NCBI GenBank assembly: GCA_020725385.1
Contig: DYFC01000014.1
Span: 1-28,950 of the forward strand
DNA: 28,950 bases
Reading direction: 5' to 3'
Source of the DNA: Nitrospira japonica
GTDB taxonomy: Bacteria > Nitrospirota > Thermodesulfovibrionia > Thermodesulfovibrionales > SM23-35
The notes under the pieces were generated by a model that saw nothing but the letters and a program-made list of their open reading frames with translations, did not search any database and was not told where the DNA came from. The number at the start of each line of letters is the position of its first letter. Within the stretch, counting starts at the first letter, position 1. Below are positions 19,732 to 28,815 of this stretch, one piece after another. Position numbers and translations under genes: made by a program.

Positions 19732-21102
19732 TCAAGCCTCAATCCCGTACTCCTTAATCTTAGTTAACAAGGTCTTATAACTTACCTGAAGTATTTCTGC
19801 GGCTTTTGTCTTGTTACCTTTGGTTTGTTTAAGTACATCGAGTATCCGCTGTGTTTCAACTTTTCTTGTGGCTTCTTTTGAGACGTATTCAAGTGTTCCG
19901 CTAATCATTTCAGGTTTTTCTCCAGGAGAGGTTTTTGTGTATTTATCAAGAATAAAATGTTCGGGAGTAATAATATCTCCTTCACAAAGTATGACAGCCC
20001 TTTCTATTGCGTTCTCGAGCTCTCTAACGTTCCCTTTCCAGTAATAATTTGAAAGAAGCTCAAGAGCTTCTTTCGATATTTCCTTAACAGGTGTTTTAAT
20101 TTCCTGACAGTATTTCTTAATAAAGAAATCTACGAGTAAAGGTATATCTTCTTTTCTTTCGCGAAGTGGAGGTATTTGTATAGGAAATACATTCAACCTG
20201 TAAAACAGATCTTCACGAAACTTTTTTTCTTCAACAGCTTTCTCAAGGTCTTTATTGCTTGCAGCAACTATTCTGACATCAACTCTTACTGGTTTGATAG
20301 CTCCAACCCTTTCGATCTCGCCTGTTTCGATTGCGCGAAGCAATTTAGATTGCAGGGTTAAATCCATGTCTCCAACCTCATCAAGAAAAATAGTTCCATG
20401 ATCAGCTAGTTCAAATTTGCCAAGTTTTTTTGTATCAGCACTTGTAAAAGAACCTTTTTCGTGTCCGAATAATTCTGATTCGAGTAAATCTCTCGGTATA
20501 GCAGCACAATTAATAGGTACAAATGGATATTCTTTTCTTGGACTAAGATTATGTATTGCTCTTGCAAAAAGTTCTTTGCCTGTTCCGCTTTCACCGATAA
20601 GAAGTACCGTTGTTTTTGTTGGCGCAACTTTTTGAACAATCTGTGCTACATTTATAATACTTTTACTTTTTCCAATTATGCGGGGAATTCCGAGTTTTGT
20701 AGCAAATTCTTCTTTCAAGAGAAGATTTTCTGTGATAAGCCTCTGGGTTTCGATTGCTCTCTTTATCATCATTAGAAGATGGTCAGTATCAAAAGGCTTT
20801 GTGATGAAATCAAAAGCTCCCAGTTTCATGGCTTCTACAGCAGTTTCAACAGAACCATAGGCAGTCATTATTATTACAGGAACCATGGAATTTTCTTCCT
20901 TAGATGCTTTAAGGACATCTATCCCGTCTTTTATCGGGACTTTGAGATCTGTAAGAACAAGGTCAATTCTGTTTTCCCTGAGAAGTTTGATTCCTTTCTC
21001 ACCATCTTCTGCTATAAATACACTATATCCCTCTGATTCAAGAGTTTCTTTGAGCATTTCTGCCATTGATTCCTTGTCTTCAATTACAAGAATGGTTTCC
21101 AT
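19732..21102 (-). CDS. sigma54-dependent response regulator (NtrC/AtoC family; REC-AAA+-Fis HTH)
   Basis: REC (IED, LTDL, KPF), GESGTGKE, ESELFGHEKGSFTSA, FLDEVG, FREDLFYRL, WKGNVRELEN, NKTKAAEILQVS. Confidence 0.95.
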   Translation of the reverse strand: METILVIEDKESMAEMLKETLESEGYSVFIAEDGEKGIKLLRENRIDLVLTDLKVPIKDGIDVLKASKEENSMVPVIIMTAYGSVETAVEAMKLGAFDFITKPFDTDHLLMMIKRAIETQRLITENLLLKEEFATKLGIPRIIGKSKSIINVAQIVQKVAPTKTTVLLIGESGTGKELFARAIHNLSPRKEYPFVPINCAAIPRDLLESELFGHEKGSFTSADTKKLGKFELADHGTIFLDEVGDMDLTLQSKLLRAIETGEIERVGAIKPVRVDVRIVAASNKDLEKAVEEKKFREDLFYRLNVFPIQIPPLRERKEDIPLLVDFFIKKYCQEIKTPVKEISKEALELLSNYYWKGNVRELENAIERAVILCEGDIITPEHFILDKYTKTSPGEKPEMISGTLEYVSKEATRKVETQRILDVLKQTKGNKTKAAEILQVSYKTLLTKIKEYGIEA

Positions 21103-21896
21103 TAGTTTACTTTTGCATTGGTTAGTGCTTCCTTACAGGAACATTTTCTGATTTCTGGTAAAAGTAATATAGTTTTCTTTATGAGATTTTTCAATAAAGC
21201 ATTGGTTTTATCCATGTTTTCAATAACTTCAGTCGCTGTAAGTTTTTTAGCAGTAATTCCTGCTGCATAATTGGTGACAATTGCAATAGAAGCATAACAG
21301 ATTTCTGCTTCTCTGGCAAGACAGGCTTCAGGCATTCCTGTCATTCCAACAATATCGGCTCTTATTTGAGAGTAGAATTCTATTTCTGCTTTTGTTTCAA
21401 GTCTTGGACCATTTGTACAGAGATAGGTTCCGGATTTCCTCAGGTTAATTCCAAGAGTATTTCCTGCTTCAATAATAAAGTTTCTCAATTCCGGGCAATA
21501 AGGTTCGGTGAAATCAATATGAACTACACCTTCTTTGCCATCAAAAAAAGTTGTTTCTCTGCCATTTGTCATATCTATTATCTGATCAGGAACAACAATT
21601 GTACCCGGAGACATTAAAGCATCTATGCTACCTGTTGCTCCTGTTGCAATTATTCTTTCAATGCCGAGCTTCTTAAATCCCCAGATATTTGCCCTGTAAT
21701 TTATTTTATGCGGCGGAATAGTATGATTTGTTCCGTGTCTTGGCAAGAAAGCTAAATTTATGCCCGATAAATCAACAATAGTATAAGAGTCCGAAGGAGT
21801 TCCATAAGGAGTAGAAATATCTATCTTTTCTCTAATTATTGCTCCTTCGATATTATATAGACCGCTACCACCAATTATGCCGATCATAATTTTCAT
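21102..21896 (-). CDS. mtnP: S-methyl-5'-thioadenosine/thioinosine phosphorylase
   Basis: IGIIGGSGLY, TPYG, PRHG, NYRANI, GPRLETKAE, VGMTGMPEA; TNYA rather than TDYD suggests a 6-oxopurine (MTI) preference. Confidence 0.9.
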   Translation of the reverse strand: MKIMIGIIGGSGLYNIEGAIIREKIDISTPYGTPSDSYTIVDLSGINLAFLPRHGTNHTIPPHKINYRANIWGFKKLGIERIIATGATGSIDALMSPGTIVVPDQIIDMTNGRETTFFDGKEGVVHIDFTEPYCPELRNFIIEAGNTLGINLRKSGTYLCTNGPRLETKAEIEFYSQIRADIVGMTGMPEACLAREAEICYASIAIVTNYAAGITAKKLTATEVIENMDKTNALLKNLIKKTILLLPEIRKCSCKEALTNAKVN

Positions 21897-22089
21897 TCAA
21901 ACATTTTACCATAATATTAATCATGAAAATATATAAATGTTGTGTTGTAATTTAACCACACTGAATATTAAGACATAACACAAAAGGTCTAATTTACAAC
22001 TTAAAGTAATACTTTATCTGTCGTTGTAAAGATGCTGTTTTGAGACAATATGTTATATGTTAAAGTAAAAAATAATAATATTCCATGTC

Positions 22090-22105
22090 TGGCATTTTAT
22101 TTGCT
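22090..22105 (+). promoter_or_regulatory. sigma54 (-24/-12) promoter of lpxC
   Basis: TGGCAT-TTTAT-TTGCT, GG-N10-GC spacing, ends 14 nt before the lpxC ATG. Confidence 0.8.
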
Positions 22106-22119
22106 TTCATATAATAACG

Positions 22120-22998
22120 ATGCGTTTACAGAGAACTATAAGAGAAGAAATTATTATAGAAGGTATAGGTTTACACACAGGAAGTTTCTCAAGGGTGTGT
22201 ATAAAACCAGCACCGCGTGATAATGGTATTGTTTTTATTCGTACTGACAAGAATGTTTCTATAAGAGCGAATGTTAATTCAGTATCTGACACAGCATTCG
22301 CGACTACGCTCGGTTATAATGGAACAAAAGTAAGAACTGTTGAACATGTGCTTGCAGCACTTTCAGGACTTGGGATAGACAATGCTTTTATTGAGGTTTA
22401 CGGTAAGGAGATACCCATTCTCGATGGCAGTTCTCTTGAGATTTCAGACATGATAATAAAAAGTGGAATAGCGAAGCAAAGCAAGAAAAGACCTTATATA
22501 AAAATTACATCACCGGTTACTCTATCCGATGGAAATGCAGAAATAGCTGTAGTTCCTTACAATGGAAGACGCATTACTTACAGAATTCACTTTAATCACC
22601 ATTTGCTCGGAGAACAGGCTATGAGTATTGAGCTTACAGAAGAAAATTTTATCATGGAAATTGCTCCTGCAAGGACATTCGGATTCCTCAAAGATGTCGA
22701 ATATCTTAAAGCCAATGGTTTTGCGCGTGGCGGCTCATTTGAGAATGCAATTATTCTTGGTGATCATGGTGTGCTGAATTCAACAGGATTGAGATACAAA
22801 GATGAGTTTGTAAGACATAAGATACTTGATTTGATAGGGGATTTTTCATTATGCGGGTTCCCCATATACGGCCATATTATTGCAAATAAATCAGGACATA
22901 CCACAAATATAAAGTTCCTAAAAAAGCTTCTTATGAGTAACGACCATTGGGAGCTTGTCTCTGAAAATTTACAACAGCCTGCCGTGATATATTCTTAA
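22120..22998 (+). CDS. lpxC: UDP-3-O-acyl-GlcNAc deacetylase
   Basis: QRTI, GIGLHTG, TVEH, PILDGS, ARTFGF, EFVRHKILDLIGD, SGH. Confidence 0.97.
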   Translation: MRLQRTIREEIIIEGIGLHTGSFSRVCIKPAPRDNGIVFIRTDKNVSIRANVNSVSDTAFATTLGYNGTKVRTVEHVLAALSGLGIDNAFIEVYGKEIPILDGSSLEISDMIIKSGIAKQSKKRPYIKITSPVTLSDGNAEIAVVPYNGRRITYRIHFNHHLLGEQAMSIELTEENFIMEIAPARTFGFLKDVEYLKANGFARGGSFENAIILGDHGVLNSTGLRYKDEFVRHKILDLIGDFSLCGFPIYGHIIANKSGHTTNIKFLKKLLMSNDHWELVSENLQQPAVIYS

Positions 22999-23082
22999 AA
23001 AATCATTTAAAAACAATGTGTTATAAATTTTACTTGAATTTTCCCCCCATAATAGAGTTACATATTTAGGTAAGAAGACCGC

Positions 23083-23115
23083 AAAAGAAAGGCTGGAGAG
23101 GTTCATCCCCAGCCT
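23083..23115 (-). terminator. intrinsic terminator of the wHTH-micropeptide unit
   Basis: Minus strand AGGCTGGGGA-TGAACC-TCTCCAGCCT then TTCTTTT; the G-U pair works only on the minus strand. Confidence 0.75.
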
Positions 23116-23147
23116 CAAATAATGAGTCAGTACTTTTGAATGGTAAC

Positions 23148-23207
23148 TTATTTTTTCTTTGCGGTCTTCTTTGCCGGTTTCTTTGCTGCTTTCTTTGTTG
23201 CTGCCAT
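23148..23207 (-). CDS. 19-aa Lys/Ala-rich histone-H1-like micropeptide MAATKKAAKKPAKKTAKKK (absent from the ORF track)
   Basis: Strong SD GGGGGTGA (23214-23221) 6 nt before ATG; ATG GCA start; xAKK repeats; TAA stop followed by a terminator. Confidence 0.75.
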   Translation of the reverse strand: MAATKKAAKKPAKKTAKKK

Positions 23208-23225
23208 TTATATTCACCCCCTTTC

Positions 23226-23253
23226 TTTCCGCACATTTAAAAATATGCGGAAA
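23226..23253 (-). other. intercistronic hairpin upstream of micropeptide SD
   Basis: TTTCCGCA-CATTT-AA-AAATA-TGCGGAAA inverted repeat; no U-tract on the minus strand, so more likely a stabiliser or processing stem than a terminator. Confidence 0.5.
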
Positions 23254-23263
23254 TAATCCTCAC

Positions 23264-23812
23264 CTATAGTCTTCCTATAAGTGTAATCCGCTTGCCTGAT
23301 AAAATCTTTTTCAGGCTTGAATCACCTTTTTTCTTTTTAACCTTATATTCGTCTTCGTCCATAAGAATGTAATCTATCTCATGGTTGAATCTTCTTTCTA
23401 TATCTTTTAGATCTTTTGCCAGCGAAGAAGATGAAGCGCCGAGAACAAAAAGATTAACAGGGGCTTCGTCATCACCTTCAGCATAAGGCCCGAAAATAAA
23501 GGCAGCCTTGGCGCCTGAAGCTCTAAGGACAGCTTTAAGAGCACCGGGCAATCCAAGGGATTTTGTAATAAGATTTTTAAGTTCTGAAAAGAGAGGAGAT
23601 TCTTTGTTAGCCTGAAAGTATTTTAGGTTGACAATTTTTTCGCTCGTAACGATTCCCATTTTTTCAAGATTATCGAGCTCACGCTTAATGCCTGAAGGAT
23701 TCTTGCGGAGGAGTTTGGCTATCTCCCTGATGTAAAACTGTTCATCAGGGCTATTAAGCAACAAAGAAAGAACATCTGCTCTTATTGATGATGAAAATAA
23801 ATTTTTTAGCAT
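23264..23812 (-). CDS. winged-HTH protein fused to a degenerate minimal nucleotidyltransferase (MNT)-like domain
   Basis: LFSSSIRADVL..FYIREIAKLL..IKRELDNLEKMGIV wHTH; AFIFGPYAEG...VNLFVLG resembles the GS..DxD fold with catalytic residues lost. ATG 23812 chosen because the promoter lies inside the longer ORF call. Confidence 0.8.
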   Translation of the reverse strand: MLKNLFSSSIRADVLSLLLNSPDEQFYIREIAKLLRKNPSGIKRELDNLEKMGIVTSEKIVNLKYFQANKESPLFSELKNLITKSLGLPGALKAVLRASGAKAAFIFGPYAEGDDEAPVNLFVLGASSSSLAKDLKDIERRFNHEIDYILMDEDEYKVKKKKGDSSLKKILSGKRITLIGRL

Positions 23813-23823
23813 TTTTATATACC

Positions 23824-23860
23824 TGTATATGTTTATACAATAAAAAATTCTATTTGTCAA
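23824..23860 (-). promoter_or_regulatory. sigma70 promoter with overlapping palindromic operator
   Basis: TTGACA (23855-23860) - 17 nt - TATAAA (23832-23837); perfect inverted repeat TGTATA-N4-TATACA (23824-23839). Confidence 0.7.
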
Positions 23861-23940
23861 CAAAAAAATTATATTTGAGAACAAATGATGCAAATTTGTG
23901 AACGATTATATATTTGGTACAGTTGTTTACAATTAATCAA

Positions 23941-24801
23941 CTATTGTTGTCTGTTAATCATATTTAATACTTTTGCAATATTTTCGGGATCGTCTCCTGG
24001 TTTCTTTTTTGGCGTTTCAAGAATGATGGGTATGTACCTGAAAGATGGATGATTAATGAATGTCTCTAATCCTTTTATTCCGATTTTCCCCAAGCCTATA
24101 TGTTCATGACGGTCAAGTCCCGAGCCTGCATTTCCTTTTGAATCATTCAGGTGTATAAGCTTAATCATATTAAGCCCCGTGTACTTTTTCAGTTCATATA
24201 CTGTTTTTTTAATGGCAGCTTCTGTGCTTATATCATAACCGGCAGTAAAAGCATGACATGTATCTAAACAGATACCGCCAATTAAATATTCAGGCAAAGA
24301 AGCAATGATTTTAGATATGTCATTAAAGGAAGATGATATGTCCCCGGATTTGCCCGATGTATTCTCGATAAGAATCTTTGTTTTCCATCTCTTTATTTTG
24401 GAAACTTCTGTTAGGCTGGCTATAGCTCTCTTTAATGAAATATCTTTATCTTCTCCTGATGAACTGCCCGGATGCAATATTACATATTCTGCTCCAATTT
24501 GGTCAGCTATATCTAATTCTAATGAGAGTAAGGTAATGGATTTATCCCTTAATTCTTGATTCCCAGACGCAATATTAATAAGGTAAGATGCGTGTATAAA
24601 AACAGGTGAAATATCAAATTTTGAACGCCACTCTTTAAATCGAACAACTTCAACTGGTTCGATTTGCTTCAAATTCCATGTTCTCGGATTGTGCGAAAAA
24701 ATCTGAATAGTTTTACACCCGAGTTCATGTGCTCTCTGAAGGCTAAGGGAAATTCCTCCTGCTATTGATGTATGTACTCCAATCCTTCTTTTGCATTTCA
24801 T
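23941..24801 (-). CDS. nfo: endonuclease IV
   Basis: IGVHTSIAGG, QIF, HASYLIN, HPGS, IENTSG, CLDTCH, HLNDSK, DRHEHIG, ILETP. Confidence 0.96.
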   Translation of the reverse strand: MKCKRRIGVHTSIAGGISLSLQRAHELGCKTIQIFSHNPRTWNLKQIEPVEVVRFKEWRSKFDISPVFIHASYLINIASGNQELRDKSITLLSLELDIADQIGAEYVILHPGSSSGEDKDISLKRAIASLTEVSKIKRWKTKILIENTSGKSGDISSSFNDISKIIASLPEYLIGGICLDTCHAFTAGYDISTEAAIKKTVYELKKYTGLNMIKLIHLNDSKGNAGSGLDRHEHIGLGKIGIKGLETFINHPSFRYIPIILETPKKKPGDDPENIAKVLNMINRQQ

Positions 24802-24804
24802 GTA

Positions 24805-26091
<1,287 letters not shown>

Positions 26092-28586: not shown

Positions 28587-28815
28587 GGGAAAATTAAGGA
28601 AAGTCTTTCTGATAGGCTATCATCTTGATATTAATTGTTATTTGACTTTGAGAGTATGTTTAAATTGTTGTCAAAAAATTAACAGTTGCTATTTTAAGGT
28701 AACATTTTTTCGAGCATCTATAGGGTTTCATTTTAACCCGGAAAGTGCAAAGAACAAAAAGGGAAGAGAACAATGAGTGAAAATTAAAATGCGAAAGAAG
28801 GGGGTAAATAGTTAC

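Follow-up and report, generated by a model that had tools for sequence, protein, structure and literature searches.

The locus analysed here lies in a stretch of 28,950 nucleotides (nt) from Nitrospira japonica (contig DYFC01000014.1 of assembly GCA_020725385.1, positions 1 to 28,950 of the forward strand), hereafter called the window; the host genome measures 2.46 Mb, has a GC content of 34.7% and is 96.6% complete. On the minus strand, between nfo and lpxC, a gene for a protein with a winged helix-turn-helix (wHTH) and a degenerate MNT nucleotidyltransferase domain (wHTH-dMNT) is followed by a short open reading frame (sORF) that encodes a Lys/Ala peptide of only 19 residues. Comparison across genomes confirms, at the level of sequence, that this micro-gene is real and that it is linked to the dead wHTH-MNT regulator in two bacterial phyla, and it points to a hidden, regulated polycation that would resemble a histone tail. 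The locus comprises the following features.

23812..23264, minus strand: wHTH-dMNT gene, 182 residues; ArsR-type winged helix plus degenerate MNT (MntA-like) domain, with a match to PADLOC PDC-M05A
23207..23148, minus strand: sORF for the 19-residue peptide MAATKKAAKKPAKKTAKKK, with 10 Lys; last gene before the terminator
23832..23860, minus strand: sigma-70-type promoter; TTGACA at 23860..23855, a 17-nt spacer and TATAAA at 23837..23832
23853..23904, minus strand: three phased YGTTSWCAAA repeats, a candidate operator array; 23904..23895, 23883..23874 and 23862..23853, 21 bp from start to start
23917..23930, minus strand: distal upstream element GTAAACAACTGTAC, a degenerate copy of the relatives' palindrome GAACAATTGTTC
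23223..23256, minus strand: stem-loop 5' of the sORF ribosome-binding site; arms 23223-23238 and 23241-23256, without a U-tract
23214..23226, minus strand: extended Shine-Dalgarno (SD) sequence AGAAAGGGGGTGA, 13 nt, 6 nt ahead of the ATG
23080..23116, minus strand: intrinsic terminator; stem 23115..23090, 11 pairs (23116..23089), then a T-run
23072..23171, no strand assigned: outer inverted repeat around the terminator; the 3' end of the ORF (23153-23171) against 23072-23090, 19 nt, 89% complementary
24801..23941, minus strand: nfo, the gene upstream of the wHTH gene
22120..22998: lpxC, converging from the other side

Read along the minus strand, the order is thus nfo, promoter, wHTH gene, stem-loop, SD, sORF, terminator and complementary segment. 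A sequence-only reading of the window had listed such elements, and all of those it named are present. Its overall interpretation held in part: the dead wHTH-MNT protein, the conserved sORF and vertical descent stood, and the idea that the micropeptide had taken the place of a HEPN gene was refined.

Among 41 relatives from the same order, 36 carry the regulator, with identities of 60-99%, and across the phylum it occurs in 130 of 301 genomes. One or more Lys-rich sORFs lie downstream and on the same strand in all 68 Nitrospirota loci, each behind AAAGGRGGTGA; a stricter SD/ATG filter recovered 64 of these 68, and the other four were found by a looser filter. A relative with 42% identity, P0131, whose 90% cluster bears NCBI names from Methylomirabilota/NC10, was used to scan metagenome contigs, which led to 80 further loci. 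The loci were then put through a uniform scan, with 900 nt on the downstream side, counting those with at least 800 nt on the scanned side; kin among them are not independent.

Downstream, same strand: 65 of 65 Nitrospirota loci, 61 of 61 Methylomirabilota-like loci, 0 of 20 canonical or paralogous wHTH-MNT loci
Downstream, reverse complement: 0 of 65, 0 of 61, 0 of 20
Upstream, same strand: 0 of 65, 0 of 55, 0 of 21
Upstream, reverse complement: 0 of 65, 0 of 55, 0 of 21

The contrast between sORF-linked loci and control loci is absolute. The sequence-only reading had proposed to look for a basic sORF downstream of the homologues, and the outcome it had named as contrary, homologues without one, was not obtained (65/65 and 61/61 loci carry it). 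Genomes without the regulator were considered as well. A search of four complete ones for a single Lys-codon pattern, which leaves other spacings and places uncovered, gave no real match, and in five such genomes no Lys-rich sORF was present within 1.5 kb of lpxC, other places being uncovered.

Within the 2.46-Mb host genome, the sORF is the sole ORF of 12 or more residues that reaches both 35% K/R and 80% K/A/T/P/S, and its product has a charge of about +10 over 19 residues. Across relatives, 81 units give 60 distinct peptides of 13-150 residues with an average composition dominated by Lys (47.8%), Ala (29.6%), Thr (11.6%) and Pro (3.5%). Among the 19-residue forms, 9, 7 and 18 of 18 columns vary at the first, second and third codon position, respectively. 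The third position is likewise the most variable one in the other length classes, with a small excess in the 17-residue class (8, 8 and 10 of 16), and all length changes across relatives are in frame. This codon-position pattern indicates that selection acts on the protein product. The overall length ranges from about 10 to 150 residues (10-34 in the Methylomirabilota-like set) and the copy number from one to three, with two or three copies in 14 of 64 Nitrospirota loci under the strict filter and in 54 of 61 Methylomirabilota-like loci. Tandem sORFs, each with its own SD, occur in L030, L041, L047, L048, L049-L064 and L105-L184. The long forms of 54-150 residues are made of KKxTAKK-type repeats (repeat-built in L024, L027, L066 and L068). 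A single terminal Cys (...GKC, ...KKKKC, ...GRGC) is seen in some of the Lys-rich peptides encoded downstream of HEPN, both in Nitrospirota (L056-L061) and in the Methylomirabilota-like set (L105-L110).

Other readings of the same segment were set aside. Two ORFs of 56 and 82 residues in other frames over the sORF lack an SD, and only the K/A frame was tested and found conserved. A leader-peptide attenuator was rejected as well, since the sORF is the last gene, followed by the terminator and the convergent lpxC, and there is no downstream gene to attenuate. Databases hold little of this family: an exact look-up of ten relatives' forms of 20-150 residues in a collection of 15 billion proteins returned none (the 19-residue form of the window is below the look-up size), and a HMMER homologue search with a 67-residue Lys-rich form returned none at E <= 0.001. 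In the ESM Atlas, large clusters of 'hypothetical proteins' of 53-72 residues from Bacteroidota, Pseudomonadota and Verrucomicrobiota resemble the 67-residue K/A/T-rich form, and HC2 is annotated on 17% of one such cluster. Short, free-standing H1-like proteins may therefore be widespread yet uncharacterised.

The first gene encodes a protein for which Pfam reports HTH_5 alone (25.3 bits versus a cut-off of 22). The Pfam nucleotidyltransferase models stay below threshold for the window protein but exceed it for a Nitrospiria-like homologue, and no NCBIfam model scores above its cut-off. PADLOC PDC-M05A, on the other hand, matches the protein over its full length (E = 7.4e-38, 128 bits), and the family profile matches the Legionella-type MNT 8xeh at 4.4e-5. 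An AlphaFold2 model built from 60 sequences reached a pLDDT of 88.7. In Foldseek, its N-terminal half retrieved the ArsR/SmtB repressors SqrR (6o8k, root-mean-square deviation 2.1 A), CadC, CzrA and SmtB, with a fit of about 2.1 A over the N-terminal 85 residues, and its C-terminal half retrieved MntA (6m6u_A, 7bxo_E) and 2rff. Profile and fold matches therefore agree with the earlier assignment of a wHTH and an MNT-like domain.

An exhaustive representative search gave 1261 cluster representatives at E <= 1e-10, mostly 180-200 residues long. The consensus across family representatives reads IYGSxAxG...SDxDL, which is the GSX10DXD signature. The window protein has FGPYAEGDD---EAPVNLF at this place: G-P replaces G-S (Ser to Pro), three residues are deleted, and P-V-N replaces D-x-D, with both Asp gone. 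In MntA, which requires the motif to AMPylate HepT, substitutions in GSX10DXD are reported to abolish activity (PMC7641770). The alignment bears out the earlier remark that the enzyme motif is degenerate: judged from its sequence, the nucleotidyltransferase active site is lost and the domain is catalytically dead. This is not peculiar to the window, as the whole sORF-linked clade is degenerate, Nitrospiria-like loci carrying SNINL at the motif.

The wHTH-dMNT gene shares common descent with two-gene modules that carry a HEPN partner. Canonical family members in other phyla, as well as Nitrospirota paralogues, have GS..SDxDL intact and are mostly followed by an overlapping HEPN gene, whose product bears an R-x-K-R-[NH]-x3-Y motif. 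The claim that wHTH-MNT relatives adjoin HEPN is hereby borne out, the canonical loci being HEPN/MNT pairs of the PADLOC type PDC-M05. Some dead-module genomes (G021, G054, G147 and G185) also carry canonical PDC-M05-type paralogues with GS..SDxDL intact (L076, L078, L080, L083 and L084); an overlapping HEPN ORF follows those at L078, L080, L083 and L084, none is present at L076, and a Lys-rich sORF is present at none. A third paralogue type with the degenerate motif GDYAKG..GIIDL (L077, L081 and L082) has neither HEPN nor a Lys-rich sORF; the next ORF at L077 and L082 encodes about 285-295 residues.

Nitrospiria-like loci (another class, about 45% identity) and Methylomirabilota-like loci have a HEPN gene between wHTH-dMNT and one or more sORFs. 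The intervening ORF of 107-169 residues is a PF05168 HEPN (27-42 bits in the best cases versus a cut-off of 22, three being weaker), and PDC-M05B also picks up the sister-lineage HEPN genes. The Nitrospiria-like HEPN partners that were examined have lost the R-N and the Y of the R-N-x3-Y motif. In the window, no HEPN gene lies between the wHTH gene and the terminator, and a profile search with the HEPN of the clade found no homologue in the 96.6%-complete host genome. Because the sister lineages have the order wHTH-dMNT, HEPN, sORF, HEPN was most likely deleted, in the class of the window, from a module that already contained the sORF. The micropeptide would then not fill the HEPN position, as had been supposed, given that sister lineages hold both together.

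A tree built from 92 members of the family places all 37 sORF-linked proteins to the same side of a branch, and both Methylomirabilota-named representatives belong to this set. The sORF-linkage label needs a single change on the tree versus 16.9 in shuffles. The wHTH-dMNT gene is a single copy in the host genome, and the convergent lpxC downstream is conserved across classes. The one-sided linked clade and the lpxC synteny therefore argue for one vertical domestication, in keeping with the vertical retention proposed earlier. The simplest history suggested by the sequences would be a single domestication in which catalysis was lost and sORFs were gained, followed by loss of HEPN in the class of the window. 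On these grounds, we regard the locus as a vertically inherited, domesticated derivative of the wHTH-MNT/HEPN two-gene module (class II HEPN/MNT; PDC-M05).

Upstream of the regulator gene, the promoter was read from the sequence, as the rule of the scan tool (T at position 6 of the -10 hexamer) left TATAAA unlisted. The element TGTTGACAAA and a TATA-like hexamer are kept across related loci, GC-rich ones included. The promoter is conserved in 67 of 68 related loci; the remaining locus is short of upstream sequence, and a -35-anchored search in it found none. The motif YGTTSWCAAA has four matches in the window versus 0.88 expected, a number that 0 of 100 shuffles reached; the fourth, TGTTGTCAAA at 28666-28675 on the plus strand, lies far from the operon. 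The third repeat embeds the -35 hexamer within the palindrome TTTGT-TG-ACAAA, the repeat columns are conserved among 50 distinct sequences of the class of the window, and the class consensus at the distal element is aac.a..gtt. As a sequence pattern, the array resembles an operator for a dimeric winged-helix repressor, and autoregulation would be consistent with palindromes at the -35 hexamer. In a related locus, L053, one strong promoter precedes the regulator gene and the sole canonical terminator follows the last sORF, an arrangement that therefore fits one operon.

The RNA elements around the sORF are conserved to different degrees. The SD class AAGGRGGTGA has just 37 occurrences in the 2.46-Mb genome, and the bS16 gene is among those preceded by one. 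The stem-loop ahead of the SD reaches -10 kcal/mol or lower in 47 of 63 loci versus 218 of 1260 random windows when each sequence is folded on its own. Pairing recurs in the relatives with unrelated sequences, and 30 pre-SD regions aligned with MAFFT, in which the arms are out of register, gave no consensus structure in RNAalifold. We infer that the stem-loop is a stabiliser or a processing element. The terminator stem GGCTGGAG..CTCCAGCC is conserved in family-level relatives. Of 63 loci, 24 show complementarity of at least 10 nt exact between the ORF end and the post-terminator segment; apart from L067, these are family-level relatives, and L017 shows changes on both arms of this outer inverted repeat. 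The outer repeat probably belongs to a compound or bidirectional terminator that also serves the convergent lpxC. Rfam at gathering thresholds gave zero matches over the whole window.

Based on these features, we propose an autoregulated operon that would yield a diffusible polycation for polyanions, with its production capped by wHTH-dMNT; we assign this reading a probability of about one half. Co-transcription, autoregulation and the target of the peptide are what we infer from the arrangement of the locus. A search for RNA runs that cover the region found none, the one metatranscriptome compared containing next to none of its sequence words. A near-consensus promoter would give rise to one transcript spanning the regulator gene and the sORF, and in the sister lineages the same transcript would also span the HEPN gene and one to three sORFs. 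The winged-helix dimer would bind the phased TTTGT..ACAAA elements, one of which lies over the -35 hexamer, and thereby limit its own operon; its proposed binding target is the promoter fragment containing TTTGTTGACAAA. The stem-loop and the 13-nt SD would confer high stability and high translation on the sORF segment. The resulting peptide, similar in composition to the C-terminal tail of H1, would neutralise or condense polyanions, with nucleoid DNA as the most likely target and RNA or polyphosphate as possible ones.

An unlikely extension of this proposal is that the dead MNT, together with the dead HEPN where it is kept, has been repurposed as a sensor or chaperone of the free oligolysine peptide. 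Unbound peptide would fill the former nucleotide/HEPN-binding cleft and strengthen repression, which would result in a homeostatic circuit for a protamine-like counter-ion. If true, this would bear on the control of nucleoid or ribosome compaction, for instance in starvation or dormancy, and would be the first case of a defence or toxin-antitoxin (TA) enzyme pair turned into a receptor for an encoded polycation, in Nitrospirota and Methylomirabilota. A complex prediction for the L024 wHTH-dMNT and its 54-residue Lys-rich protein, run without controls, gave no answer on their association, with a score of 0.00 versus a mark of 0.32. In a Candidatus Portnoybacteria contig, a 294-residue ORF (L098:1222-2106, plus strand) carries a K/R/T-rich tail of about 93 residues in frame with a wHTH and degenerate MNT-like protein; it matches PDC-M05A with 62.8 bits and no Pfam model. 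As the usual Met of the family is at residue 94, this is either a fusion or an upstream Lys-rich ORF that reads through. A fusion would hint at a shared target of polycation and regulator.

Several points weigh against the proposed operon and its polycation. The branch that unites the linked clade is not strongly supported (SH-aLRT 86), and the L098 fusion is one case only, with an uncertain true start codon. The module was not found in two families of the same order, f11 (0/11) and f4 (0/8), and is therefore dispensable. The promoter repeats could alternatively be phased A-tracts or sites of another factor. The peptides resemble H1 tails in composition alone: the Pfam HC2 model gives the long forms of relatives sub-threshold scores (28.5, 18.1 and 38.3 bits versus a cut-off of 40) and does not match the 24-residue form.

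Among the other explanations, an unlikely one is that the peptides are ribosome- or RNA-associated polycations like the very small basic ribosomal proteins, with wHTH-dMNT merely as an operon companion. The sORF does have the SD class of highly expressed genes, bS16 of the same genome included, and its products are tiny and extremely basic. Nonetheless, peptides of about 10 to 150 residues in one to three copies, 60 of them distinct among 81 units, are a misfit for a fixed ribosomal site. The sORF never adjoins ribosomal-protein genes in the loci read, and entire families of the order lack the module.

A TA-like or defence pair, in which the polycation is a toxic effector that condenses nucleic acids and wHTH-dMNT, alone or together with HEPN, both neutralises it and represses its production, is quite unlikely. 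Descent from HEPN/MNT modules catalogued as PDC-M05 would fit such a pair, as would the operon layout with a DNA-binding first gene. The acidic stretches EGDDE and DEDEY in the dead domain would fit it too, and the sequence-only reading had suggested that they bind the basic peptide; the net basic character of the protein (pI 9.45, each half above 9) makes this idea a weak one. The single copy, the lpxC synteny and the vertical inheritance across classes are unlike mobile TA and defence genes as described in PMC2701414. Moreover, the sORFs are tandemly duplicated without duplication of the regulator, and neither mobility nor defence genes flank the module: no mobility gene was seen in window positions 21000-26000 and no defence gene flanks it within the window. 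Further neighbours on the minus strand (19732-21896 and 24805-26091) are housekeeping or regulatory genes as judged by translation, namely a sigma-54-type response regulator (456 residues), an MTA-phosphorylase-like protein (264 residues) and an enolase (428 residues).

That the polycation targets polyphosphate granules and not nucleic acid, by analogy with the H1-like AlgP, would be very unlikely. This K/A/P-rich protein is reported to space polyphosphate granules (PMC9239181), and the peptide shares its composition class. The peptide is, however, ten times shorter than AlgP-type proteins, its operon partner is a DNA-binding protein, and no linkage to ppk or ppx is seen in the loci read. Finally, it is extremely improbable that the sORF is a cis-acting translation or termination element with an unselected product (an A-rich tract pairing with the U-tract of a bidirectional terminator, or a lysine-codon sensor). 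In favour of this, the ORF 3' end does pair with the post-terminator segment and the Lys codons supply an opposite-strand A-tract for the convergent lpxC. Against it, this complementarity is limited to 24 of 63 loci while the sORF is universal, the codon-position pattern points to protein selection, tandem copies and forms of 54-150 residues exist, and no downstream gene is available for attenuation.

The locus thus exposes a conserved protein-coding gene family below the size reach of gene callers, in carriers that include nitrite oxidisers of the Nitrospira type and NC10 methane oxidisers. It also provides an example of pseudo-enzyme exaptation, in which the widespread TA-like defence candidate PDC-M05 was domesticated to a vertically inherited dead regulator. 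Intermediate stages are preserved, as a motif-degenerate HEPN is kept in one lineage and HEPN is lost in another. If the peptides are indeed minimal polycations similar to H1 tails, this would bear on the origin and the minimal requirements of charge-based control of chromatin or condensates in bacteria.

In the literature searched, no description was found of Lys-rich micro-genes linked to wHTH-MNT or HEPN/MNT-type modules. The parent module is already known as a candidate, while the dead-enzyme derivative and its micropeptide genes appear undescribed. PDC-M05, a nucleotidyltransferase with HEPN, is listed as a putative defence candidate with an unconfirmed antiviral role (PMC12988326). The wHTH-MNT architecture and the gene order agree with those of canonical PDC-M05 or class II HEPN/MNT relatives. 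By contrast, GSX10DXD is lost here, HEPN is motif-degenerate where examined or, in the genome of the window, absent, inheritance is vertical and syntenic and not patchy, and Lys-rich sORFs are extra (0/20 canonical loci). The C-terminal domain of the window protein has the fold of MntA from the type VII HepT/MntA system (Shewanella oneidensis SO_3166/SO_3165). Yet MntA has no N-terminal winged helix, the window protein has no GSX10DXD, and the HEPN of the family is of the PF05168 type without RX4HXY. With ArsR/SmtB repressors such as SqrR, CadC, CzrA and SmtB, the protein shares the winged helix, and the locus shares palindromic elements that overlap the promoter; its sensor part, however, is a dead nucleotidyltransferase domain in place of a metal or sulfide site. 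Thx and bS22 are examples of very small basic ribosomal proteins, from which the peptides differ in their variable length and copy number and in their diversity (60 distinct peptides in 81 units). In composition, the peptides resemble Hc2 of Chlamydia (PF07382) and AlgP of Pseudomonas, with which they share Lys/Ala/Thr/Pro low complexity; their length varies with repeat number, as is reported for Hc2 (PMC2848022). Unlike these proteins, the window peptide has 19 residues and no repeat array, and the family is encoded by one to three micro-genes tied to a specific regulator.

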